Part shown: one piece after another, positions 17,131 to 64,000 of the stretch | Position numbering within the stretch: position 1 is the first letter of the stretch | Layout of the letters: every line of letters starts with the position of its first letter | Source of the DNA: Candidatus Gygaella obscura | GTDB taxonomy: Bacteria > Omnitrophota > Gorgyraeia > Gygaellales > Gygaellaceae | NCBI GenBank assembly: GCA_030765485.1 | Contig: JAVCCR010000032.1 | Location: 166,289-230,288, forward strand | Reading direction: 5' to 3' | DNA: 64,000 bases | Translations under genes and position numbers: made by a program | Notes under the pieces: model-generated | Database searches by the model: none | Seen by the model: only the letters and a program-made list of their open reading frames with translations | What the model was told of the DNA's origin: nothing

Positions 17131-18534
17131 ATGATTAAATTATTTAAAAAAACCTCTATTTCTTCCCGGGGCTTACGCAGTAAACTGGCTGTTGCTTTTG
17201 CTTTAACTTCGACTATTCCTATACTAATCAGCGTTTATTTATTAACACAAATTACTGATATCTCTAAATTGGATTCACGTATTGGTGTGTTTCTTTTTCT
17301 GAGTCTGGTAATTGCTGTTATCGGCTATTTTGTTTTAAATACTATAGTCAGCTCGATTATTAGAACCAGCAAAAAAGCCAATGCCTATATAAACGGAAAA
17401 ACCTTTGGAGGAATGAAAATTTCCACCGATGATGAGATTTCTGATTTGAATAAAGCTATTGATAAGCTTAACGACCGTATACGCGATAATATGGATAAGC
17501 TAAGTTTTTATGATAAACAAAGCAAGCTTGTAGGTATGGATTTAAACAAAAAAATCATTGCGCTTTCAAGTCTTTTACAGATTGGAAGTTTTATTTCTTC
17601 AACCAATAATATCGATGATATTTTTTCGTTGGTTGTCGGAAAGCTGGCCAATATTGAGTCTAGCTTCGAAGTTTTTTTATTTCTGCATAATAAAAGTAAT
17701 GAGTATACGCTTGATTTTGCATCTAACCAGGAAAAAATTAAATCAAATGTTTTTACCTTATCAACCGATTCAAGAAAAATCGTTCAGGCTATTTCTAGCA
17801 ATGAGCCTTTAAGGCTTGATGTTTCTCGTTCCGAATCAAAAACCCTGGAGCGATTGGGAGAAATATTCAATATCCGCAATATAGTTATCTTTCCTATCTT
17901 TGCCTGCGAGGAGACTAAAGGGATTCTTGTAGTAGGTAGCACTAAAGGAGATTATATTTTTGAAGCATCAGATATTGAGCTTATAAGACTATTTTCTAGA
18001 CAAGTTGCTATTTCACTTGAGAAGAATCAGCTTTTTACCAAGGCAAAAAAACTGGAAGTTAAAGACGGGTTAACTGGTTTATATAATGAGCATTTTATAC
18101 GCAGCCGTCTAGAGGAAGAGATAAAACGTGCATTTATTTCTCAGAGGCCGTGTTCTTTTGTTCTTTTGACTGTAGATAGGTTTCAGGATTATCAGCAGCG
18201 CAAGGGTCAGGATGGTGCGGAGAGTTCTTTAAAACATATCGCTACTTTATTAAAAGAATCTTCTCGCGAGATTGATAAACCAGGACGATTTGGATATTCT
18301 GATTTCGCGATACTGCTTCCTGAAATGAATAAAAAGGAAGCGATTGCTCTAGCGGAAGAGGTTAGACAAAAGGTGGCTTTTATTTTTAAGGAAGAGGAAG
18401 ATGTAAAACTTCGTTTGACAATTTCAGCTGCCGTAAGTGAGAATCCCATAGATGGAATAAAAGCAGAAGAATTGATTATACATGCAAGGAATCTTTTGGC
18501 TAATAAAAACTCAGATAATAAGGTTTTTCGCTGA
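17131..18534 (+). CDS. Membrane-anchored GAF-like / degenerate-GGDEF protein with RxxD I-site retained (putative c-di-GMP receptor)
   Basis: 467 aa with two N-terminal TM helices, a HAMP-like coiled coil and a GAF-like middle domain. The C-terminal GGDEF fold has the active-site motif changed to RFGYSDF, while the upstream REID (RxxD) keeps the canonical spacing. Confidence 0.7.
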   Translation: MIKLFKKTSISSRGLRSKLAVAFALTSTIPILISVYLLTQITDISKLDSRIGVFLFLSLVIAVIGYFVLNTIVSSIIRTSKKANAYINGKTFGGMKISTDDEISDLNKAIDKLNDRIRDNMDKLSFYDKQSKLVGMDLNKKIIALSSLLQIGSFISSTNNIDDIFSLVVGKLANIESSFEVFLFLHNKSNEYTLDFASNQEKIKSNVFTLSTDSRKIVQAISSNEPLRLDVSRSESKTLERLGEIFNIRNIVIFPIFACEETKGILVVGSTKGDYIFEASDIELIRLFSRQVAISLEKNQLFTKAKKLEVKDGLTGLYNEHFIRSRLEEEIKRAFISQRPCSFVLLTVDRFQDYQQRKGQDGAESSLKHIATLLKESSREIDKPGRFGYSDFAILLPEMNKKEAIALAEEVRQKVAFIFKEEEDVKLRLTISAAVSENPIDGIKAEELIIHARNLLANKNSDNKVFR

Positions 18535-22444: not shown

Positions 22445-25400
22445 ATGCAAAAAGATTTAATTATCTATATTGATGAGTTGACCGAACTTTACAATAGAAG
22501 ATATCTTTCCCAGGTTTTTCCCAAGGAACTTAAAAAAGCTCAGGAAAAAAATTACAGTCTTTGGTTTTTTATGATGGATTTAGATAATTTTAAAGGCATC
22601 AATGATACCTTGGGTCATTTGGCCGGAGACGATGCTTTAAAAAGTCTCGCGGTGGTTTTGAAAAAGAATATGCGCGAGCAGGATATACTTTTTCGTTATG
22701 CAGGTGATGAATTTTCCGCAATTATCCCCGGTGGTACGCTTTCTGATGTTCTGGCGGTAGCTAAAAGAATTCTAGAAAACGTTGCCAGGTCCTCTTTTGG
22801 CAGTAATCCTATGCAGCCGGCAATGAAATTCACGGTTAGTATCGGTATTTCTTGTTTTCCTGAAGATGCAGTCGATACCCTGCGTTTGATTGATTTGGCT
22901 GACAAAGCCCTTTATGTATCGAAAAGAAAAGGTAAAAATCATATTTCCGTCGTTAGCGATGTGCCTCCAGAAGTTTTAAGTCTGTATCAGATTTTAGAAA
23001 AATTTCCTTGTCCTGTTTTTATCGATAGAGTAGAAGAATTAAACCAGCTTTTTAAAGCTACAGACGAATTTATAGCGCATAAAAAGAAAAAGAACATTTT
23101 TATATTCGGAAATTCCGGAATAGGAAAGACAAGGATTTTACATGAGTACGGAAAGAGAATTTCCAGTAAAAACATAAGCTTGATAGTTTCGCACGCAAAC
23201 GAAAAAGACATTTTTACAAATTATCATATTTTTATCGATGGTATTAGCGATTATTTCAAGACGCATAGTTTTCAGATGGAACTGCTGGAAGGTTTAGATG
23301 ATAAGGCTAAGTCAATTTTGGTAGGTTTTATTCCGGATTTGAAACGATTCGTAAGCGTTTCCGATACAGAACTTAAAAATCTTTCTGGTAAATCAATTAA
23401 GGATGAAGAAATAAAGATTATTTTCAAGAAATTTATTTCTAATATATGCAAAAAGCATTCTTTGTGTTTTGTGGTTGATGACCTGCAGTGGACAGATAAG
23501 GCAAGTTTGGATTTATTAAAGGAATTTAATTCCATAGAAGAAAGTCTGATGGTTATTGCTGCGGTTTCTAATGATTATGTTGTGCAAAAGGATAACCTTG
23601 TTCCTTTAAGCGATTTTATAACTAAGCATAGTTTATCTTTTGAGAGGCTTGATGTTAAACCATTTGAAAAAGAACAGGCTGCTAAGATGGTTAATGCTGT
23701 TTTTAATTCTTTGGATAATTTGAACGAATTTACATCGTTGTTATTTTCTGTTACCAAGGGTTCACCTTTATTTATTGAAGAGCTTCTAAAGTATTTTATA
23801 AATCGTGGTTTTGTTTTTTATCGTAAAGGAAAATGGGGTTGGTTGGATATAAGAAAAGAAGATCTTCCTTCAAGTATAGAAGAAGTCGTTGCTCAGCGTA
23901 TAAAATCTTTAAGTTCTGAATTAAAAGAGGTCATTACTCAGGCATCTGTAATCGGAGAGGGTTTTGAATTAAATCTTCTTCAGAAGTTAGGTAAAAAGAA
24001 TCAGGGCTATCTTATGGATTTGATTGAAACCGCCAAGAAATCTGGTCTTATCAGGGAGGAAAAAGGAGCTGAAGGCACCAGATTTGTTTTTACTAGTGCA
24101 AAAGTAAAGGATGTTTTATATGGTTTGGCAGATAAAAATGAAATTAAAAATCTTAACCGACAGATCGGACAGATAAAAGAAGAGATTTATAAAGGTAATG
24201 AAGATCAGGTTGCCGGCGAGTTATACTATCGATTTAAAAAGGCAGAAGATGAAAAGAAAGCTACTCGTTATGCAAAGATGGTTAAAGAAGGCCGTTCTTT
24301 TGTTTATGAAAAGAGTATTCATTTTGCCAAGGGTCTTCTGGAAGAAGTACAGGTTACTGAACAGGAAATTCCTGATAAGGTAATTGATGGAGTTTCTGAT
24401 ATTGTACGTCTTATTTATGTTTCCCAAATTAACAGCAGTCTTTATCCAAAGGGCAGCTCCATGCGTACTCAACCTTTGGCAGATTTGATTTCAAAACTAA
24501 AGAATATCTTTGAATATGTTTTGGTGGTAAGTTTTAGTCATTTTAATGAATTTTTAGTTGTTAATAATCGGATTTACGATAATGAGAGCCTTAAGGGAAC
24601 ATTTAGGAATGCATTTATTGGTCTTTTAAAGCAGAACAAGATTGAAAAAATTTCTTTTTTCCCTAGTTTAAGCGTAGAGGAGTTGGAGAATTTTTTAGAA
24701 TTGTTTGAATCAAGTGAAAAAGAAATATTCAAGAATAAATTTAATCAAGAAGAATTTGCTAATATAAAGGTAGAGTATTTAAGTTATGAGAACTATCTTT
24801 CCAAAAGGACCAAAGACAGAGAGCAGTTGCAGGATATTATGCTTTTGGATTATCTTTTAGGTAAAGTTCCTGGAGAAGGCATAGGGGGCAAGATGGATAT
24901 TCTTGATAAAATCCAGACACATAGTCAGGATATAGCTTCTGCTCTTACCAAGATGGCGGATAAAGTTAGCAAGCAAAAAGGAGTTGATAAGGATTCGGCA
25001 AGGGCAGATATACTTTCTGATAATTTTAAGAAAATATCTCAGCATATATTTAATAAAGGAGAAGGGGCCTGGGATAAGTATAAGAAAGGGCTTGCCAATA
25101 CAATACTTTCACTTGAACCTAATCTGCGCGATGAGGTTTTACATAAACAACTTGAAGAGGATAAGAAAAATGCCGCGCTTGAAAATAATCAGTCTGCTTC
25201 TGATACATCCGAAGAAGCTGTTTCTTTTGATAATACAGATGAATCGACTGGTAATTTAAAAAAAGATGCTTTGAAAGATCAGCCGCAGCAGGATATTATC
25301 AAGGCCTTAGCAGGAGAATTTCCCGAAGATGTTGTTCTGGATTTGATAAAGAAGGAATATAAAGATGGCGACAATAGCCCCGAGCAGTTTAAAGAGATAG

Positions 25401-26608
25401 TTCTAAAATTCTTGCCTGAAGATAATGACCAGAAAAAAACCTTGATGGATAAGATTAGTAAGCTTTTAAAAGAAGAAGGGGCTTCGGAAGAAGAGTTGAA
25501 GTTTCTTACTCAGGAAGAATTCTGGCCAAAACTTGGATTTAGTGAAAAGATTATAGATTTTATGAATATGGCTTCAGATAGATATGTATATATTTCCAAC
25601 AAATACGGGTTTAATCCGGTTATGGAGTTTGCGCTTTCTTCAGAGACAGGAGAGGTTAAAAAAATACTTGAACGCTTGGTTTATTTTATTGAGTCGGATA
25701 GCTTAGAAGCAAAAAAGATAGCCAAGCAGGACCTTCTGTCCTTGATTGATCTGGTGTTTACTTATAAGAAAAGCGAATTTTTAGAATTGTTAATTAATAC
25801 ATTTATCGCTGAATTGCGCAAAGAGCATAATGAAGAAACTACCAGTATATTTATTAATCATATTGAAAAACTTACTTATGTTGTTTTTTCTATGGCAGCT
25901 TTTGATTTATTCTCCAAAGTAATTAATGAATTAAAAAAACTTGTTGCAGAAGATAACACTTCCGAAGATATGAAGGCAAATCTCAGTTTGGTTTTATCTC
26001 ATATTTGCTCAGATGAAATAGTTCAACGATTGATTGAAAGATTATTTAATTATGTTGATAGCAATGAGGATTATTCTCAAATTATTCAGATTTTTGTTGC
26101 CATCGGTAAGCAGGCAGCGAATAGATTGATTGATGAGGCAATGTTTGAGAAAAACATAAATGTTGTAGGTTATTTCGGCGGATACCTTAGAAGAAAGGCT
26201 GTCGGTAATATTTTAAATATGATGGATAAAAATGATGTTATGGAGTTTATAAAAAATAGACTTCAAAACGAGAAGTGGTTTATTGTACGCAATACAATTG
26301 ATTTAATTATGCATATAGATAATCCTGAGTATATTTTACTTCTTGGAATCGTGAAAGATAATAACGATTCGCGCGTAAGAAGAAAACTGCTTTTTGTTTT
26401 GGGTAGGTTTAAGAGCAAGCAGGCATTGGATATTTGTTATTCTCTGGCTAATGACCGTGATGATGCTATTGCTATGGGTTCGATAAAGCTGATTGCTTCT
26501 ATTGGAGATAAAGATTCTCTTGATTTTTTGAACAATTTATCTGTAAAACATTCCTTGCGTGATGAGAAAAATAAAGCTATTGAAGAGCTGAAAGAAAGGT
26601 TAAAATAA
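22445..26608 (+). CDS. Large multidomain signalling protein: GGDEF (RYAGDEF, I-site REQD) - AAA16/STAND-type P-loop NTPase - helical/HEAT-like repeats
   Basis: 1387 aa. Residues 1-175 form a GGDEF fold (DLDNFKGINDTLGHLAGD...RYAGDEF...KALYVSKRKGKN). Walker A is FGNSGIGKTR and Walker B is LCFVVDDLQWTDKASLDLL, the AAA_16/STAND signature. The C-terminal ~250 aa are HEAT/PBS-like repeats (DSRVRRKLLFVLGRF...NDRDDAIAMGSIKLIASIGD). It is translationally coupled to pilB2 upstream and to the MshEN gene downstream. Confidence 0.7.
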   Translation: MQKDLIIYIDELTELYNRRYLSQVFPKELKKAQEKNYSLWFFMMDLDNFKGINDTLGHLAGDDALKSLAVVLKKNMREQDILFRYAGDEFSAIIPGGTLSDVLAVAKRILENVARSSFGSNPMQPAMKFTVSIGISCFPEDAVDTLRLIDLADKALYVSKRKGKNHISVVSDVPPEVLSLYQILEKFPCPVFIDRVEELNQLFKATDEFIAHKKKKNIFIFGNSGIGKTRILHEYGKRISSKNISLIVSHANEKDIFTNYHIFIDGISDYFKTHSFQMELLEGLDDKAKSILVGFIPDLKRFVSVSDTELKNLSGKSIKDEEIKIIFKKFISNICKKHSLCFVVDDLQWTDKASLDLLKEFNSIEESLMVIAAVSNDYVVQKDNLVPLSDFITKHSLSFERLDVKPFEKEQAAKMVNAVFNSLDNLNEFTSLLFSVTKGSPLFIEELLKYFINRGFVFYRKGKWGWLDIRKEDLPSSIEEVVAQRIKSLSSELKEVITQASVIGEGFELNLLQKLGKKNQGYLMDLIETAKKSGLIREEKGAEGTRFVFTSAKVKDVLYGLADKNEIKNLNRQIGQIKEEIYKGNEDQVAGELYYRFKKAEDEKKATRYAKMVKEGRSFVYEKSIHFAKGLLEEVQVTEQEIPDKVIDGVSDIVRLIYVSQINSSLYPKGSSMRTQPLADLISKLKNIFEYVLVVSFSHFNEFLVVNNRIYDNESLKGTFRNAFIGLLKQNKIEKISFFPSLSVEELENFLELFESSEKEIFKNKFNQEEFANIKVEYLSYENYLSKRTKDREQLQDIMLLDYLLGKVPGEGIGGKMDILDKIQTHSQDIASALTKMADKVSKQKGVDKDSARADILSDNFKKISQHIFNKGEGAWDKYKKGLANTILSLEPNLRDEVLHKQLEEDKKNAALENNQSASDTSEEAVSFDNTDESTGNLKKDALKDQPQQDIIKALAGEFPEDVVLDLIKKEYKDGDNSPEQFKEIVLKFLPEDNDQKKTLMDKISKLLKEEGASEEELKFLTQEEFWPKLGFSEKIIDFMNMASDRYVYISNKYGFNPVMEFALSSETGEVKKILERLVYFIESDSLEAKKIAKQDLLSLIDLVFTYKKSEFLELLINTFIAELRKEHNEETTSIFINHIEKLTYVVFSMAAFDLFSKVINELKKLVAEDNTSEDMKANLSLVLSHICSDEIVQRLIERLFNYVDSNEDYSQIIQIFVAIGKQAANRLIDEAMFEKNINVVGYFGGYLRRKAVGNILNMMDKNDVMEFIKNRLQNEKWFIVRNTIDLIMHIDNPEYILLLGIVKDNNDSRVRRKLLFVLGRFKSKQALDICYSLANDRDDAIAMGSIKLIASIGDKDSLDFLNNLSVKHSLRDEKNKAIEELKERLK

Positions 26609-43136: not shown

Positions 43137-43893
43137 TTTTATAAAATTCTTAGGTACTGCTGGTGCGCGTTTTGTTACTATTAGTCAACTGCGAGCTTCA
43201 GGCGGGATCTGGATTAGGTATCAGAATACAAATATTCTTATTGATCCAGGTCCGGGAAGCCTGGTTAAGGCATTAGAGGCGCGACCTAAGCTTTTACCAA
43301 AGACACTTGATGCGATCATTTTAACACATAGGCACCTTGATCATGCTAGCGATTTAAATATTATGACCGAGGCAATGACTGAAGGTTGCCGTAACAAAAG
43401 AGGAATGCTTTTAGTGCCTGAAGATAGTCTAAAAAAAGAAACAATGATACTTTCTTTTTTAAGAAAAAGCGTTAAATCGGTTAAATTGTTAAATGTAAAG
43501 AAAAGTTTTGTTATAAAAGATATCCGTTTACAGAATGTTTACCGTTTGAGGCATAGCGTCGAGACTTATGCCTTAAAATTTATTTTTGGTAAAACAAGTT
43601 TATGTTTAGTCAGTGATACCATGTTTTTCCCCTCATTAAGCAAAAAGATTAACAGTTGCGATTATTTGATACTTAATGTAGTGTTTTATAAGCCCAATGC
43701 GGATATAAAACATCTTGATTATTTTTCAGCAATAAAACTGATTAAAGAAGTGAAGCCTAAAAGAGCGATAATAACTCATTTTGGTACGCCGATGTTAAAG
43801 GCGAATCCAAAAAAACTGGCTAAAAAAGCAAAAAAGATGACAGGTATTGATGTTCTTGCGGCAGAAGACGGCATGAAGTTGATGATTAAATAG
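43123..43893 (+). CDS. MBL-fold metallo-hydrolase
   Basis: LTHRHLDHASDL (an HxHxDH variant) and downstream His/Asp ligands. Confidence 0.7.
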   Translation: MKQNNFIKFLGTAGARFVTISQLRASGGIWIRYQNTNILIDPGPGSLVKALEARPKLLPKTLDAIILTHRHLDHASDLNIMTEAMTEGCRNKRGMLLVPEDSLKKETMILSFLRKSVKSVKLLNVKKSFVIKDIRLQNVYRLRHSVETYALKFIFGKTSLCLVSDTMFFPSLSKKINSCDYLILNVVFYKPNADIKHLDYFSAIKLIKEVKPKRAIITHFGTPMLKANPKKLAKKAKKMTGIDVLAAEDGMKLMIK

Positions 43894-43894
43894 A

Positions 43895-43923
43895 TTGACA
43901 GTTTGGAAAGGCTTTTTTATAAT
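43895..43923 (+). promoter_or_regulatory. Consensus sigma70 promoter TTGACA-17-TATAAT
   Basis: TTGACA at 43895-43900 and TATAAT at 43918-43923. AAGGGAGG lies just before the start of the 43946 gene. Confidence 0.55.
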
Positions 43924-43945
43924 AATAATAGGATAGGAAAGGGAG

Positions 43946-44620
43946 GTGTTTATGTCTATATTTATAGAACCTGCTAAAACAGTATTATTGCAAATCGGAT
44001 CATTTTTGCCGAAGTTGATTGCTGCGATTATTGTTTTTATTGTCGGCTGGCTTTTAGCAAAAGTAATCGGTGAGCTTCTAAAAAGATTTTTAAAACTTAT
44101 TAAGTTGGAACAATTTGCGGATAATGTTGGTGTTAATAAGTTTTTAACCAAAGGTGGTATCAAGTATACTTTTTGTGAATTATTAAGCTTTTTGGTATAT
44201 TGGTTGGTTGTGTTAGTTGTGTTGGTGGTAGCTGTGGACATATTAGGTCTTACCGTAGCCGGAAATATAATTGAAAAGGTAGCTTCATATATTCCTAATG
44301 TTATTGCTGCATTGTTTATTTTAATATTAGGTATATTTGCATCCAGTTTTTCTGGTTCTACTGTTACAGCAGCTTTGACCAATGCTGGGATAGAGCAGGC
44401 TCGTCTTTTAGGCAAGGTTGCAGAGATAATCATAATTGTATTTACAATCTTTGTTGCCATTGAACAACTGGGTATTGCTGGTCAAGTTATTGTGCTAGCG
44501 ATAACTATAACTTTTGCATCTATTGGTTTAGCAGTAGGTCTTGCGTTTGGTCTAGGCTGTAAGGACATAGCTGCTGATTTTTTGAAGAATTTTTTAGCAA
44601 AAATTAAGGTAAAGAAATAA
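43946..44620 (+). CDS. Membrane protein with Conserved-TM-helix repeats (MscS-N-terminal-like)
   Basis: 224 aa, 4-5 TM helices. The repeated pattern hydrophobic helix - KxxxxxLxxxGxxxxxxG resembles the TM_helix repeat family. The start may be the ATG at 43952. Confidence 0.5.
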   Translation: MFMSIFIEPAKTVLLQIGSFLPKLIAAIIVFIVGWLLAKVIGELLKRFLKLIKLEQFADNVGVNKFLTKGGIKYTFCELLSFLVYWLVVLVVLVVAVDILGLTVAGNIIEKVASYIPNVIAALFILILGIFASSFSGSTVTAALTNAGIEQARLLGKVAEIIIIVFTIFVAIEQLGIAGQVIVLAITITFASIGLAVGLAFGLGCKDIAADFLKNFLAKIKVKK

Positions 44621-57293: not shown

Positions 57294-58703
57294 ATGACGG
57301 TTAAGCGCAAACGTAAAATCAATAATGATACTACTGGCGGCAATCTAAAATCTTCCATTTGGAAATTAGCTGTTCCGATGATGTTTGGGGCAGTTTTGCA
57401 TGATCTTTTTTCCTTGGCGGATTTGTTTTTTGTCGGCAGGCTCGGTCATGAAGCAGTGGCGTCTTTGACTATATCGGGGTTTATTCTTTCTGTGATAATG
57501 ATGGCGATTATCGGTATTGCTACAGGTACAACTGCCTTGATTGCACATTTTACAGGTAGAAAGGATTATGAATCTGCCGATTTAGTACTTTTTCAGACAG
57601 TGGTAGTTAGCATTGTTGGTTCTTTGATTATGGTTTTTATCGGTTTATTTGCTACTGATTTCCTGCTGCGTTTATTTGGGGCAACGCCAGAGATTATTCC
57701 TGCAGCCGCAGAGTATTTAAGAATATGTTTTGTTTGGTCGATTTTTATATTCCTTTTTATCGGTTTTAACCAGGCCCTAAGGGGTTCAGGTGATGTTGTT
57801 GTTCCTTTAAAGGTGCTTATTTTAGCTAATGTTATCAATATAATTATTGATCCGATGTTTATTTTCGGCTTTGGCATTATTCCTTCAATGGGAGTAGCTG
57901 GTTCAGCCATAGCTACTGTCTTAAGCCGCGGTATAGGAGTTTTTATTCTTTTGTTTCATTTTATGTTTGGTCATTCCAGCCTGCATTTTCGTAAGAATAT
58001 CTTTAGGCTCAATTTTATGCTTATAACTAGAATGATAAAGATCGGGTTTTTTGCTTCATTCGAGGTGTTGTTAAGACAGATTTCTATTCTTTTATTGGCT
58101 CGTCTTGTGGTTTCATTTGGTGCAGTAGCCTTAGCTGCTTTTGGTATTGCCATGAGATTGCGGATGTCTATTATTATGTTGGGTATGGGTATGGCTGATA
58201 CAGCTTCTGTATTAATCGGTCAGAATATGGGCTCAGGTAATCCCAATAGGGCGCAGAAGTCCGGCATGAAAACCTTAAAATATTTTGAATTAATGATTAT
58301 TCCAATAGCAGTGTTATTCTTTGTTTTTTCCGGGAAAATTATTGGGCTATTTAATAATTATCCTTTAGTTATAGATATAGGAAAACCCCTTTTAAAGCTG
58401 GTGGCAGTTACTCTTCCATTTTTGGCTTTGGCGCTTATTTTAGGTAGAGGCGTAACCGGAGCAGGAGATACGCTTGCACCGGCAGTAGTGACCGGCATTG
58501 CCCAGCTGGGCCTGCGTGTTCCTGTTGCTTATCTTATGGTTAGTGTTTTCGCCTTAGGCGTAAATGGTGTTTGGATGGGAATTATTGTTTCTGATATATT
58601 CCAGGGTTTGGCAATGTTATGGTATTTTAAGAAAGGATACTGGAAAAAAAGATATTATAAGCATAGAGTGATATTAGAGCAGGGCGGATTTATTGATGCA
58701 TAG
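57294..58703 (+). CDS. MATE-family efflux transporter
   Basis: 469 aa, 12 TM helices, MatE repeat pattern. Confidence 0.85.
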   Translation: MTVKRKRKINNDTTGGNLKSSIWKLAVPMMFGAVLHDLFSLADLFFVGRLGHEAVASLTISGFILSVIMMAIIGIATGTTALIAHFTGRKDYESADLVLFQTVVVSIVGSLIMVFIGLFATDFLLRLFGATPEIIPAAAEYLRICFVWSIFIFLFIGFNQALRGSGDVVVPLKVLILANVINIIIDPMFIFGFGIIPSMGVAGSAIATVLSRGIGVFILLFHFMFGHSSLHFRKNIFRLNFMLITRMIKIGFFASFEVLLRQISILLLARLVVSFGAVALAAFGIAMRLRMSIIMLGMGMADTASVLIGQNMGSGNPNRAQKSGMKTLKYFELMIIPIAVLFFVFSGKIIGLFNNYPLVIDIGKPLLKLVAVTLPFLALALILGRGVTGAGDTLAPAVVTGIAQLGLRVPVAYLMVSVFALGVNGVWMGIIVSDIFQGLAMLWYFKKGYWKKRYYKHRVILEQGGFIDA

Positions 58704-58926
58704 CCCAACATGTAATAAAAATACAATTTTTCATAGGATATAATTCTGATTTAAAGATTCTCAAGCTGTTTTAAAAATACAGGCTCTATATCAATGCTTT
58801 GTATTTGCTATTCATCTATAATTTTATACTTTGTAACACTTATTCCTCCAAGCAGTTAACGAGTAAATACTTTTGTTAATTATAGAGAAAAAATTAATAT
58901 AAATATATAAATTTTTGTCTAGGTAA

Positions 58927-58950
58927 TGTTATAATATTATATTAAGGAGA
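58927..58950 (+). promoter_or_regulatory. Extended -10 promoter element (TGtTATAAT) and AAGGAGA Shine-Dalgarno for the giant gene
   Basis: TGTTATAAT at 58927-58935 inside a ~250 bp AT-rich intergenic region. AAGGAGA at 58944-58950 lies 7 nt upstream of the codon at 58958. Confidence 0.45.
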
Positions 58951-58957
58951 TAGGCTA

Positions 58958-61900
58958 ATCAAAAAACAAATTCTTATAACAGTACTGGTTTGTTTATCCT
59001 TAGTTGTCTATGCGGGTAAAGCGTTTGCGGCAGACATAACCTGGAATTCCGCTGATGCTGGTACTTGGGGTGATGATACGAACTGGGCAGGGGGATCAAA
59101 ACCAGGGGCCGATGATACAGCAATATTTGATGGGACGGGAGCAGGAGTTTGTACTATCGATACAGACGAAGTTTGTACAGGAATTACTCTCAGCAGCGGA
59201 ACTATAAGCGTTACAACTGGCAGTCTTGATTTGAGCGGAGATTTTACGATATCCGGCGGGTCTTTTACAGCACCCAATGCTGCAGATAAATTTTATGTTG
59301 GAGGTACCTGGACTAATAACGGTGGAACATTTAATAATGGCGGTACTTCATCTGAAGTAACATTAGATGGCGCTAGTAAGAATATAGCAGGAACTGCAAC
59401 AACCACATTCAATGATCTTACCATAGATGGATCTTATTTAGCAACTACCAGCGTAACAGTAACTGATGTATTGATAATTGATTCGGACGATTCCGGTACG
59501 GATTCTTTGACATTGGATGCTACTTCTAATGCCGTTACCCTTTCGGTTGAAACTTCAATAACTATAGGAAACAATGGCGATCTGATTAATGACAATGGTA
59601 ATGATTCTGATAGGCATCTAACGCTCATCGGTACCAATGTGGGGACTCCGCTTTCCATAACTAAAGCACCGGAATTTAGACTAACCACCTATCTCCAGAA
59701 CGTAGATATACAAACAACTACTGTATTAGATACTAATGTTTCGCTTATATATTTAAATGATAGCAATTGCAATTTTGCCGGATTTACAGTTTCTACAGGT
59801 GTAGCAATTGCTGGTCTGTTTATGCAAGGTTATGATGTGAGTTTTACCGGTGATATTTCGATAGCTGGTACAATATCGGGAATACAGAATAACGGTGGGA
59901 ATATCAATGCAGGGACAAACTCCATAACCCTCAATGGAAATGATACAACTGCAACTATATCATTAGATGGAAATGGAATCCTTACCGCAGGCGCTGTCAA
60001 TGTTACTTCCGGAAAATTTGACCTTGATAGCAGTACGTGTTCGGTAGACTTTTCCGGTAATTTGACTATTGGCGCAAGCGGTACGGTAGAAGCAACAGGA
60101 TTTTCGCCGGATATTAATGTTGCCGGTAATTGGGATAACAACGGGACATTTACTGCCGGAAGTAGTAAAGTTATCCTGGATGGTACAACTAGTACGACTT
60201 TTGAAGCAGGTTCATCTAGTTATTATCAAATAGAAATAAACAAAACGGGTACTGATTCCAATGATGAGGTTACTGTTCAAACAGATACCCTGACAATGAC
60301 TAATGCTTTAACGGTGACTAACGGTGTATTGGATCAGGATATAGCAATATCTGGACCCACAGGAGTTACGATAGCAGCTGGTGGTGAATGGATAAATGAT
60401 ACTAATAGTGATGTTACGTTAGCGGGCGATGTAGCTAATGCCGGAATAGTAACGTTTAATGGGATAACGGTGAATAATGGTATAACCATAGCTTCAAGCG
60501 ATACCACAAAGCGTAACTGGCAGACTTCAGGCGCAGGTTCGTTTAGTTTTACCGATGTCACTGCATCATATCAGTCATGTACTGGTGGTAGTCCAGCTAC
60601 GATAGCTGTAACAAGCGGAACTAGCGGGGGTAACAACTTAAACTGGACGTTTGGGACGAATACGGTTACGGGAGCTGTTTATAAAGGGGTTACGCTACAG
60701 ACATCAGATCCCATTGGAGTAGTTTTTCATGACGTTAGTGCCGGAACAACTGATATTATCCTTGATAATACGAACGGCAGTGGTATTTTTGGTACGACAG
60801 TTGGAACAATAGGGGCGGGCGACATTATCGGCCTATATACTGATGATGATAACGCAGAGACAGGATGTACAGTTATTGAATGTGAATCCGGAGGAGATCA
60901 GGCTGGATTGACAATGGCTTATTATTATGTGTTTTTGTCTAGTTCAAATTTAACGAATGCGGATTTGAATGAAGTTGATGCTGACATAGATGATGAGATG
61001 AATTTTACAGTTGATGGTAGTGGGCATCTTACAACTGGAACCAGTAGCCAGTTAATGTTACAGCTGAGTGCCAATACAAATTATGTACCCGGAGGGAATG
61101 TGACCGTTCCTGGGTCAGTCGGAGATGATGGTGATATAACTCTGGGGGCTCTTGCGATAATGAATATGGAGGGAAATGATCTCAATATGACGGGTACTTT
61201 GAATGTTCAAGGTACTTTTTTACAGACGGTTGGAGGGACAACCACGATAAGTGGTGCTACAGAAGCTATTGTTGCGTCTTCGAATTTTGTTAGTGCTACT
61301 TTTTATGATCTAGATATCACGGGAACATACTCGTTAGATGATGGAGATATTAACGCTATTATGGTCTTGAATGATCTTACTGTCGGTGACGGGGCATCAT
61401 TAACCTTAGGCGGAACCGCTGGACCGCTCACAGTCACTGTTGATAACTCTATAATCTATGCCGAAGGATGTAGTGTCTCCGGGGAATATGACGAAGGTAT
61501 TATAATTTCGAATGATGACAATGCTGTTACATTGGTAGGCAATACTGGTGATGAAACCTTTGTGGGTACGGGCGGTGGTAGTGCTGAGATATTTTATGTC
61601 GCGAATAATAAGATGATCTATCTATCGGGTCTTGATGTGCAGATGCCGACGATAATCGAAGGATCAAACGGAGGAAGCTTAGCTTCTGCAGTTTCAGCTA
61701 TTACTCTTAGCGGAGCTTGTACATTTGATGCCATAACTATACAAAACGGTTTGTGGAATCTTACCAGATTTTATACTGGTGCTAATGTGTGTACAGTTGG
61801 AGGTACGATTACGGTTGATGGTAATGGTACTACTGGGGGGGCTTTTCATGTAGATAATGGAGGAACTTTGACGGCTACCGGGCAAGATATTGTTGTGAAT

Positions 61901-64000
61901 CTTGGTGGAAGCGGGTTTTGGGTAAACGGTAACGGTACGGCAACATTTGATGATATGACAAGCAGTGGTTGGACTGGATTTGCGTCTACACCGACCGGAT
62001 CTATGAATATTACCGGTAATTACACTAACACCGGGACAGTAAATTTTGGCAGCGGCGCTTGTGCTATTTCACTTGAAGGTAATTGGAACAACTCCGGTGG
62101 TGTGATCTCCAATGCCGGAAGTTCCACGATTACGCTCGATGGTAGCACAGCAAGTACAACCTTTATTGCAAAATCTGACGGCAGCGATGTCTATAACAAC
62201 ATTACGATCAACAAAACAGACGGTGATGATGGTGATGATAATGTCACATTTCAGACAAATGCGTTTACTATTGATGGAACATTAACCGTAACTGACGGTG
62301 AAGCGGTGCAGCAGGTACCTTTTACACGCGTTGATGCAGTGGATCTTGCGAATGCAGGAAAATGGACCAATACGACAGCAGGAGCTGATATAACCCTTGG
62401 CGGTAATGTTACAGGATACGGTTCGGGGCATCTTAATTTTGATGCTGCTTTCAATATCAGGTCAAGTGCAGCAACTCAACGTAATTGGGACGGTGGGCTT
62501 ACAGCAGATGCCATGTCGAACGTTGATGTGAGTTATCAGAACTGGATAACAGATAGGATAAAGGTAACCAGCGGAACAGATTCAGGCAATAACACAAACT
62601 GGGTTTTCGGTGAAAACCAGATATTCGGAACAGTTTATACAGATGATACTAAAGTTTCAACTCAGAATAGTACGGCAGTAACAGTGGTTGTCTATGATAA
62701 TTCTGCTGGGACGCAATCAATTTATACGACTACCACCCATGCCAGTGACGGAACGTATTCAGTAGGCAACGGTACTTTAGCGGAGAACGATCTCATTGGT
62801 GTTTACTTAGATACAGGTGGTGCGACAAAAGCAACATCTGTATATAAATGTGCGGGTCCAGGAGATGTTACAGGGCTTGATCTTTATGTTGGTGATCTGG
62901 TAATAAGTGGCGGTAGCATTACCACAACTAATTTAAGTAATGCCGATGATACGGATACGGATATCTTGTATTCCATAGATGGTGATGATGATTTTACCTT
63001 AAATTCCGGAGTTAATCTTTATATAGAATCCGGCGCAACACTAAATCTTGAGAGCAATAATATTGATGATATCTCCGGCAACATGACAATAGAATCGATT
63101 GGTACCTTAACCCAGGCAGGTGGGACAACGATTTTATCCGGTACAAGTAAAACTATAACCGGCGCAGGAACATATACGTTTTATAATCTTACCATAGATG
63201 GCACGTATACATTTCAGCCTTCAGCTAGTGTGACCATGACAGTTTCGGGTACATTGTTAACGAATGATTCAGGAGATACACTCAGTTTGGATGCGGATAC
63301 AGGAAATATAGATTTAGTGCTTGAGGCAAGAGCTTATGTTAATAACGGTAATATTGAAATTATATCTTCAGATGATGACACTGTTACAATTCAGGGCACA
63401 GATGATACCGTAAGAGATTTTGGTGAAGATTCCGGAGATAATTTTATTGATCTTAACGGAAGGGGTGTATATGTGCGATATCTAGATTTTAAGATGAATG
63501 CTGTTGCTGATGAGTCTGGTGATAATATTAAAGTTACTGGGCCCTGCACATTTGTAGATGTTTCTCTGCTCAATGTATGGACAGGTTTTCAGGTTTTTGA
63601 GGGTGCAACTGCTACTATAAATGGTAATGTTACAACAGCGTCGACTAGTTGGCTCTTGGTTGGCGACAATCTTGACACTGATACTATCGGTATCATGAAC
63701 GTTTCAGGAGATATCAATATTGGTGCTTCTGGTTGGCTTGGGTCTGGTTTAGCTGTGGCATATGGTGATTCAATCATTACAGCAACCAATATCGATGTAA
63801 GTAGTGGTAGTATTATTGTTGTAGATGAAGATTCGACCACAGGAAAAATAGATGTAAGTGGAAATATTACTATGTCTGGAGGGAGCGTTAAACTTACAAA
63901 TTATGGAACTATTGAACTTGAAGGTAACTGGGATAACTCGGGAACAACTTCATTTATCTCAGGAACGAGTTCCACGATTACGCTTGATGGCAGTGCGGCA
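58958..64000 (+). CDS. Giant secreted Gly/Thr/Asn-rich repeat protein (putative surface adhesin / beta-helical repeat protein), 5' part only; ORF open to the end of the window
   Basis: My own translation from 58958 gives (I)KKQILITVLVCLSLVVYAGKAFA|ADITWNSADAGTWGDDTNWAGG..., a classical signal peptide with an AFA-A cleavage site, followed by unbroken coding sequence. The ORF track reports no complete + ORF in this 5 kb stretch, which is consistent with a frame that has no stop before the window end. A module recurs, of the form GNW(D/N)N(N/S)G...(I/V)TLDG(S/T)...TTF...(Y/N)(D/N)LTIDG. I found no in-frame ATG, GTG or TTG between the upstream TAA at 58943-45 and the signal peptide. Confidence 0.65.
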   Translation, partial: MKKQILITVLVCLSLVVYAGKAFAADITWNSADAGTWGDDTNWAGGSKPGADDTAIFDGTGAGVCTIDTDEVCTGITLSSGTISVTTGSLDLSGDFTISGGSFTAPNAADKFYVGGTWTNNGGTFNNGGTSSEVTLDGASKNIAGTATTTFNDLTIDGSYLATTSVTVTDVLIIDSDDSGTDSLTLDATSNAVTLSVETSITIGNNGDLINDNGNDSDRHLTLIGTNVGTPLSITKAPEFRLTTYLQNVDIQTTTVLDTNVSLIYLNDSNCNFAGFTVSTGVAIAGLFMQGYDVSFTGDISIAGTISGIQNNGGNINAGTNSITLNGNDTTATISLDGNGILTAGAVNVTSGKFDLDSSTCSVDFSGNLTIGASGTVEATGFSPDINVAGNWDNNGTFTAGSSKVILDGTTSTTFEAGSSSYYQIEINKTGTDSNDEVTVQTDTLTMTNALTVTNGVLDQDIAISGPTGVTIAAGGEWINDTNSDVTLAGDVANAGIVTFNGITVNNGITIASSDTTKRNWQTSGAGSFSFTDVTASYQSCTGGSPATIAVTSGTSGGNNLNWTFGTNTVTGAVYKGVTLQTSDPIGVVFHDVSAGTTDIILDNTNGSGIFGTTVGTIGAGDIIGLYTDDDNAETGCTVIECESGGDQAGLTMAYYYVFLSSSNLTNADLNEVDADIDDEMNFTVDGSGHLTTGTSSQLMLQLSANTNYVPGGNVTVPGSVGDDGDITLGALAIMNMEGNDLNMTGTLNVQGTFLQTVGGTTTISGATEAIVASSNFVSATFYDLDITGTYSLDDGDINAIMVLNDLTVGDGASLTLGGTAGPLTVTVDNSIIYAEGCSVSGEYDEGIIISNDDNAVTLVGNTGDETFVGTGGGSAEIFYVANNKMIYLSGLDVQMPTIIEGSNGGSLASAVSAITLSGACTFDAITIQNGLWNLTRFYTGANVCTVGGTITVDGNGTTGGAFHVDNGGTLTATGQDIVVNLGGSGFWVNGNGTATFDDMTSSGWTGFASTPTGSMNITGNYTNTGTVNFGSGACAISLEGNWNNSGGVISNAGSSTITLDGSTASTTFIAKSDGSDVYNNITINKTDGDDGDDNVTFQTNAFTIDGTLTVTDGEAVQQVPFTRVDAVDLANAGKWTNTTAGADITLGGNVTGYGSGHLNFDAAFNIRSSAATQRNWDGGLTADAMSNVDVSYQNWITDRIKVTSGTDSGNNTNWVFGENQIFGTVYTDDTKVSTQNSTAVTVVVYDNSAGTQSIYTTTTHASDGTYSVGNGTLAENDLIGVYLDTGGATKATSVYKCAGPGDVTGLDLYVGDLVISGGSITTTNLSNADDTDTDILYSIDGDDDFTLNSGVNLYIESGATLNLESNNIDDISGNMTIESIGTLTQAGGTTILSGTSKTITGAGTYTFYNLTIDGTYTFQPSASVTMTVSGTLLTNDSGDTLSLDADTGNIDLVLEARAYVNNGNIEIISSDDDTVTIQGTDDTVRDFGEDSGDNFIDLNGRGVYVRYLDFKMNAVADESGDNIKVTGPCTFVDVSLLNVWTGFQVFEGATATINGNVTTASTSWLLVGDNLDTDTIGIMNVSGDINIGASGWLGSGLAVAYGDSIITATNIDVSSGSIIVVDEDSTTGKIDVSGNITMSGGSVKLTNYGTIELEGNWDNSGTTSFISGTSSTITLDGSAA

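Follow-up and report, generated by a model that had tools for sequence, protein, structure and literature searches.

Bacterial translation starts at near-cognate codons are already known, as are large, repeat-built surface proteins of beta-helical type or from Omnitrophota. In Escherichia coli reporters, AUA, AUC, AUU and CUG initiated at 1–2% of the AUG level, and an AUC-initiated protein carried an N-terminal Met by mass spectrometry; the confirmed non-canonical starts of this species are those of infC and pcnB only, both AUU (bioRxiv 10.1101/063800). In Staphylococcus aureus, infC, cvfC1 and ccpN have natural AUU or AUA starts, all with a strong extended Shine-Dalgarno sequence (SD). Their output was about 10% of that from AUG, and ccpN output varied with the growth medium (PMC13009471). 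The locus described here lies in a stretch of 64,000 nucleotides (the window) from Candidatus Gygaella obscura, a genus and species named from metagenome-assembled genomes (MAGs) of Ace Lake (PMC8542988); exact matches to proteins encoded nearby point to this organism. The host is an uncultured Antarctic-lake bacterium of the Omnitrophota, order Gygaellales in GTDB usage. On its forward strand, the window holds the first 1,681 of 4,322 codons (58958–64000, the 5' 39%) of a giant gene for a predicted surface protein, and AUC is probably the functional start of this functional gene.

The giant frame is closed on its 5' side by an in-frame TAA at 58943–58945 (+ strand), four codons ahead of the ATC at 58958–58960 (+ strand), the candidate initiation codon, which would be read as formylmethionine (fMet). 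The same TAA opens the SD, UAAGGAG at 58943–58949 (+ strand), which has seven contiguous matches to the anti-SD complement and an 8-nt spacer to the ATC. The AAGGAGA at 58944–58950 overlaps this SD, and the spacer measures 7–8 nt. The SD contains the sole GGAG in an intergenic region of 254 nt with 23% GC. SD strength was taken as the contiguous match to the anti-SD complement and compared across the gene starts of the window. The match was longer in only two of the 33 ATG-start genes, placing the giant gene third among 34 starts.

From the TAA into the hydrophobic core, the codons read GGA GAT AGG CTA ATC AAA AAA CAA ATT CTT ATA ACA GTA CTG. Neither the codon list for 58946–59041 nor an open reading frame (ORF) scan gave an in-frame ATG, GTG or TTG between the TAA and codon 92. 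The 24 codons from the ATC onwards (58958–59029, + strand) encode a predicted signal peptide, (M)KKQILITVLVCLSLVVYAGKAFA, for which the hydrophobicity profile and the homologues place the cleavage site before AD. It comprises two Lys, a 15-residue hydrophobic core, ILITVLVCLSLVVYA, and A-F-A before AD. The features expected of a Sec/SPase I substrate were thus found, with a positive n-region, a hydrophobic h-region within the usual 10–16 residues and small residues at -3 and -1 (A-x-A), and the Kyte–Doolittle (KD) 9-mer mean reached 3.4. These sequence rules and an alignment with homologues served to judge the signal peptide. An earlier note on this DNA, made by eye from the sequence, had described the TAA, the SD 7 nt upstream, the ATC and the signal peptide, all of which were present, and it was also right that no canonical start precedes the hydrophobic core. 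Its concern that an in-frame stop had been missed proved unfounded, as no stop interrupts the 1,685 codons up to position 64000, in DNA of 35.8% GC.

The earlier note had left the choice between a genuine non-AUG start and a single-base error for ATG. The base at 58960 is truly C and the DNA reads ATC. The JGI contig L001 matched the window without a difference along 16.7 kb, and L001 and three separately assembled Sequence Read Archive (SRA) runs (L002–L004) were 100% identical to it over 58700–59060 (361 nt), including the ATC. These contigs were reached via the upstream MATE protein, and L008 via a variant MATE protein from a European Nucleotide Archive (ENA) sample. L008 represents a slightly different strain in which the leader and the ATC are unchanged. 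Along the 1,932 codons over which its ORF was intact, it differed from the window by seven synonymous changes and one non-synonymous change. A second, diverged locus type was found in L005 (ENA), L006 (a MAG) and L007 (JGI), in which GGAGATAGGCTAATCAAAAAAC was kept exactly and the SD part GGAGATAGGCTA was also retained. The upstream region of this locus type was wholly unlike that of the window, with a Fer4 gene and a frameshifted helix-turn-helix (HTH)-like ORF. Scans of genome contigs and metagenome contigs returned one locus each, both of the L005 type.

Altogether, the ATC was identical in L001–L004, L008 and L005–L007, representing three haplotypes and two genomic contexts. A sequencing or assembly error hiding a true G (ATG) has in its favour only the general consideration that a single base separates ATG from ATC. 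Such an error was excluded because seven assemblies, built from at least six read sets, agree on the ATC across three haplotypes and both contexts, and its probability is practically nil. The error half of the earlier note's alternative was thereby discarded. Non-AUG initiation, the other half, we infer from the sequence, together with its efficiency and any regulatory role of the AUC. Among the carriers, L006 (CAZWIR010000032.1) is a separate GTDB species representative with the title 'uncultured Planctomycetia bacterium'. At the N-terminus, its giant gene shares about 90% identity with the gene of an Omnitrophota genome, with which it recombines. Either the taxon label of L006 or the assignment of this contig to the MAG may be in error.

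The first canonical in-frame start of the window is a TTG at codon 92 (59231–59233, + strand), where the JGI gene call on L001 begins. Start-less 5' extensions were compared among the window's 45 ORFs with 200 or more codons. The giant ORF, with 95 codons ahead of its first canonical start, was the only one with more than 35; the next longest extension had 35 codons and the others had at most 14. The position of the first canonical start varied between haplotypes. It was codon 92 in the window, codon 172 in L008 and codon 13 in the L005 type, there inside the signal peptide, so that the L005-type gene call begins MSLVVFAGKAFA.... The TTG itself was a synonymous TTA in L008 and the L005 type, whereas the ATC and the SD were invariant. 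Codons 2–91 of the window and L005 differed by 10 synonymous and 7 non-synonymous changes (dS 0.17, dN/dS 0.20), compared with a dN/dS of 0.36–0.40 at a dS of 0.45–0.51 in the remaining gene. Judged by these substitutions, codons 2–91 are under purifying selection. The changes within the signal peptide (L-F, C-Y and Y-F) kept its hydrophobicity.

The layout of homologous proteins pointed in the same direction. A phmmer search with residues 1–115 against 1.84 billion representative proteins gave 685 matches, and in 126 of the best 149, a Met and a hydrophobic signal peptide stood directly ahead of an A-x-TW..NW..PG..D.A.FDG domain. One such N-terminus reads MSKKVAVAIVCLFVICTSVFA before the cleavage site and ADITWDGG after it. 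The ATC falls exactly at the Met position of this architecture. Because the canonical starts are variable, the upstream codons are under purifying selection, the homologues share this layout and the ATC occupies the Met position, the region 5' of the canonical start appears to be translated. The public call, which would make a cytoplasmic protein without a signal peptide from TTG 59231, has the choice of the JGI gene caller on its side. No SD precedes this codon, however, two of the three haplotypes have TTA in its place, and the 91 codons upstream of it, besides being under selection, are homologous to the signal peptide and N-terminal domain of hundreds of proteins. The TTG at codon 92 as the true start is contradicted by these comparisons and is very improbable.

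P0064 and P0045, two relatives whose sequences open with the mature domain itself, were considered as further cases of hidden non-canonical starts and rejected, as the start of each lies at the stop codon of the gene before it or overlaps that codon. P0045 is followed by a Peptidase_M23 gene. From their gene layout, both appear to be genuinely without a signal peptide and are uninformative on start codons.

The strong SD UAAGGAG and its 8-nt spacer would position the 30S subunit at the AUC at 58958, where the initiator tRNA would read the codon as fMet. The AAA AAA at codons 2–3 may help, since A-rich early codons favour initiation. AUC would pair imperfectly with the CAU anticodon and be discriminated against by initiation factor 3 (IF3), and initiation would therefore be expected at a few percent of the AUG level. 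Such a weak start would limit how much of a very costly protein is made and may couple this amount to the IF3 level or the growth state. A wider claim would be that the AUC is a selected and conserved throttle, perhaps responsive to IF3 or growth state, on a very costly surface protein; that it is the first natural bacterial AUC start linked to a secreted giant protein; and that a share of the large proteins of Omnitrophota and of the Planctomycetota–Verrucomicrobiota–Chlamydiota (PVC) group catalogued without a signal peptide are truncated calls hiding near-cognate starts. This wider claim is rather unlikely.

Initiation might also occur slightly further 3', at ATT 58970, ATA 58976 or CTG 58985. 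These codons are in frame, they lie 5' of most of the hydrophobic core, and the initiation efficiency of AUU, AUA and CUG is close to that of AUC. However, they are 20–35 nt from the SD, outside functional spacing, and no second SD-like motif lies ahead of them. A start at any of them would also lose the Lys-Lys n-region that is found in the homologues. Initiation at one of these codons is quite unlikely, and the AUC at 58958 is the preferred start.

Several observations weigh against the AUC as a working start. A natural bacterial AUC start with experimental confirmation was not found in the literature surveyed. All ATC carriers are close relatives, with a dS of about 0.16 in the 5' region. 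Between the window and L005, dS was 0.16 in the 5' 160 codons versus about 0.5 elsewhere, which fits gene conversion. In L008, codons 79–94 (L008:5008–5056; window 59192–59240) showed four synonymous differences, all of them L005-type alleles, and this stretch reads as a short gene-conversion or recombination tract that links both locus types. Because of the close kinship and the gene conversion, the shared ATC may go back to a single event that was inherited or copied.

The L005-type copy added further points on this side. An in-frame TAA at L005:3792–3794 replaces codon 612, a Gln codon in the window. It was seen on one short-read contig. Downstream of it, the frame stays homologous and open for about 1,530 codons, and gene callers split the gene into products of 599 and 1,484 aa. 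Upstream, at L005:1773–1959 and also in L006 and L007, a small MerR/excisionase-like HTH ORF, MKQKKRNYHIAQEVCNMVGISKKTLFSWED up to a stop codon, seems frameshifted. It resumes in another frame as ...FPRDWRGWRMYKEKHLKEAKRIMEIG and ends in a TAA that overlaps the ATC of the giant gene (TAATC). Its state was the same in three assemblies, and it might be what is left of a regulator or an arrangement for coupling. The internal TAA and the broken HTH ORF fit decay in the L005 lineage.

These observations lead to the main alternative, in which an ancestral ATG changed to ATC and the gene became silent or nearly so, a young pseudogene that in the window lineage has no stops yet. The low efficiency of AUC in E. 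coli, a very poor initiator there, is in line with this, as are the signs of decay in L005 and the kinship of ATC carriers whose locus types exchange sequence. On the other hand, 4,322 codons are open in the window lineage despite the GC content of 35.8%. dN/dS was 0.17–0.40 between the two ATC-bearing lineages at a dS of up to 0.5, the strain polymorphism showed seven synonymous changes to one non-synonymous change, and the strong SD was kept in all copies. The L005 TAA, moreover, depends on a single contig. Start-codon loss keeps some weight because the L005-type copy carries this internal TAA, but it is unlikely, and the AUC as the start of a functional gene is the reading followed below.

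The leader offered few additional elements. The earlier note had proposed an extended -10 promoter, TGTTATAAT at 58927–58935 (+ strand), for which the evidence was weak. TATAAT occurs three times in the spacer of 23% GC, and the L005-type leader is without the extended -10-like element. The promoter scan found two sites where 3.2 were expected from shuffles, under scan rules from which those of Omnitrophota promoters may differ. The extended -10 is no better than chance, and this part of the earlier note was dropped. A minimal start-stop ORF, ATG-TTA-TAA at 58926–58934, lies in the putative -10, 24 nt 5' of the ATC. It is not found in the L005-type leader and is probably a chance occurrence in AT-rich DNA.

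Rfam gave nothing at the gathering threshold in the whole window and only chance-level matches at E up to 10 in 58600–59300; a known riboswitch in the leader, such as a c-di-GMP riboswitch, was therefore ruled out. RNA structure in the leader was not significant against shuffles (z = 0.13), and no terminator was found. Two other explanations for the start were rejected. A special tRNA was dismissed, as the window contains no tRNA genes. Frameshifting or slippage at the A6 run (58961–58966) was excluded because no upstream ORF feeds the run. No ATG-initiated ORF in another frame reaches it; the ATG at 58926 is followed by TTA TAA, and in L005 an ATG-GAG-ATA-GGC-TAA stops one base into the ATC.

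L001 keeps the ORF open for at least 3,248 codons. The full length of 4,322 codons comprises 91 codons plus the JGI product of 4,231 aa, which starts at codon 92, and confirms that the gene is very large. The protein is rich in Thr, Gly, Ser, Asp, Val and Asn. Its mature N-terminal region (aa 25–401; 59030–60160, + strand) begins with the widespread A-x-TW..NW..PG..D.A.FDG module and is predicted to form a right-handed parallel beta-helix. The AlphaFold2 (AF2) model of this region had a pLDDT of 71.7 and a pTM of 0.63 and superposed on right-handed beta-helices. The earlier note had also listed copies of a repeat motif, which were located exactly, at aa 116, 390, 1041 and 1656 (nt 59303, 60124, 62078 and 63923), and had suggested diverged repeats at the kilobase scale. 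Chunked self-BLASTP bore this out with a period of about 610–655 aa (1.85–1.95 kb) and units starting at about aa 338, 990 and 1603, plus a weaker fourth.

Repeat unit 1 covers about aa 338–989 (59969–61924, + strand) with GNWDNNG at aa 390, at self-BLASTP offsets of 653 and 1265 aa and 27–42% identity. Repeat unit 2 covers about aa 990–1602 (61925–63763, + strand) with GNWNNSG at aa 1041. Repeat unit 3 starts at 63764 (63764–64000, + strand) with GNWDNSG at aa 1656 and runs past the window end. Units 2 and 3, offset by 614–615 aa, shared 65–72% identity along about 390 aa, compared with 27–42% for other pairs. Short-period tandem repeats were not found; the repeats are diverged and about 1.9 kb long. 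The AF2 model of one 618-aa repeat unit was all-beta with low confidence (pLDDT 60.6, pTM 0.41). Foldseek with this model gave no match at E ≤1e-3, and the top entries were beta-helix passengers at TM 0.1–0.2. The beta-helical fold claimed in the earlier note is thus supported by modelling for the N-terminus and suggested for the repeats of about 615 aa, where the fold search returned nothing significant.

Pfam and NCBIfam gave no match to aa 1–1681 at E of 0.01–0.1 or better. Beyond the window, CarboxypepD_reg, Ig-like, DUF11 and SdrD_B domains were present in L001 and L005. On L001, DUF11 (PF01345) reached 53.3 bits against a gathering cutoff of 24.6 at about aa 2757–2860, and TIGR01451 reached 45.3 bits. 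A conserved C-terminal module (GRLAYYLKGKIKGKYLITS...YYPVYGD...) follows these domains and matches no Pfam family; it may be an anchoring module. This C-terminal module lies at about 20600–21410 in L001 and about 7700–8396 in L005, with the pattern F/WxxGRLAYYLKGKIKGKYLITS..D..YYPVYGD...TDTQG..Y....WD.S...WGN....TEF..FNR(S/T)L(Y/F)G(G/A)K. It also occurs in fragments assigned to Nitrospirae, Elusimicrobia, Roizmanbacteria and others, once beside an OmpA domain. Most likely, the product is exported via Sec, built from repeats and largely beta-helical, and is placed at the cell surface or outside the cell; a role as an adhesin would be a plausible conjecture. Its layout would run from the signal peptide and the N-terminal beta-helix through three to four diverged units of about 615–650 aa to the Ig-like, DUF11 and SdrD_B domains and the C-terminal module.

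The minus-strand ORFs in the span of the giant gene have at most 105 aa and all lie inside the long ORF; their dismissal as artefacts in the earlier note was accepted. Across the window (1–64000), 44 gene-like ORFs of at least 200 codons are all on the + strand and tightly packed, forming an unusually long co-directional block. The single minus-strand ORF of this size, at 43795–44481, overlaps + strand ORFs. The same block includes two genes, at 17131–18534 and 22445–26608, whose products carry the NCBI name diguanylate cyclase; one product has 1,387 aa. pilZ genes were noted beside giant genes by West-Roberts et al. (bioRxiv 10.1101/2023.11.21.568195).

The protein itself is an ordinary beta-helical, repeat-expanded surface protein. 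Provided that the AUC is used, a natural AUC would join a very short list of bacterial near-cognate starts that are mostly AUU or AUA (infC, pcnB, ccpN and cvfC1), and it would point to weak start codons as a means of rationing how much is made of very large secreted proteins. Regardless of AUC use, standard gene callers limited to ATG, GTG and TTG put the start at codon 13, 92 or 172 in the three haplotypes. These calls remove or break the signal peptide, and the protein would then be misclassified as non-secreted in topology surveys of long Omnitrophota proteins. The locus is of modest interest as a well-supported candidate for a natural AUC start and as a tangible example of a signal peptide lost through gene calling.

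Compared with the passengers of type V autotransporters and TpsA proteins (UpaB, pertactin, Ag43, Hap, EtpA and HMW1), the giant protein shares the N-terminal Sec signal peptide, the very long, repeat-built sequence rich in Thr, Gly, Ser, Asp and Asn, and the right-handed beta-helix in the modelled N-terminus. The sequence identity is only 7–15%, however. No Pfam or NCBIfam match of autotransporter, two-partner secretion (TPS) or pectate-lyase type was obtained, and no beta-barrel translocator or autotransporter Pfam family was found within aa 1–3248 of 4,322. The N-terminal TPS/haemagglutination activity domain that marks TpsA proteins had no match in aa 1–1681, and the neighbouring gene encodes a MATE transporter, not TpsB. 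The C-terminal half differs as well, with its Ig-like/CarboxypepD_reg, DUF11 and SdrD_B domains.

The giant proteins described from Omnitrophota (10.1101/2023.11.21.568195; 10.64898/2026.06.07.730766) come from the same phylum, with Gygaellales among the listed bearers. They have in common with the present protein a signal peptide, a repeat-rich sequence with few recognisable domains and a presumed role at the cell surface. At 4,322 aa, the present protein lies below the catalogue threshold of at least 10,000 aa and thus outside that class, and it is without their multi-enzyme domains and transmembrane helices. Start codons are not discussed in either of the two papers, and a literature search for Omnitrophota with 'start codon' gave nothing relevant. 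Close relatives of the giant protein were very few, with six matches per search among 5.8 billion sequences. The PVC 'beta strand repeat-containing proteins' (for example P0003, Planctomycetota) share the N-terminal module A-x-(T/L)W..NW..G..P..D.A, which follows the signal peptide, and the recurring GNWxNNGTF..G.STVTFDG....F.NLT repeat, but at 19–39% identity and over short stretches only.

With regard to the start codon, the likeness is to infC and pcnB of E. coli and to infC, cvfC1 and ccpN of S. aureus, whose starts likewise depart from AUG only at the third base. The giant gene shares with this class a strong or extended SD at normal spacing and a start that is kept among close relatives, and a low, IF3-sensitive output would be expected of it as well. 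It differs from them in having AUC as its candidate start and in encoding a predicted secreted structural protein of 4,322 aa instead of a regulator or translation factor.

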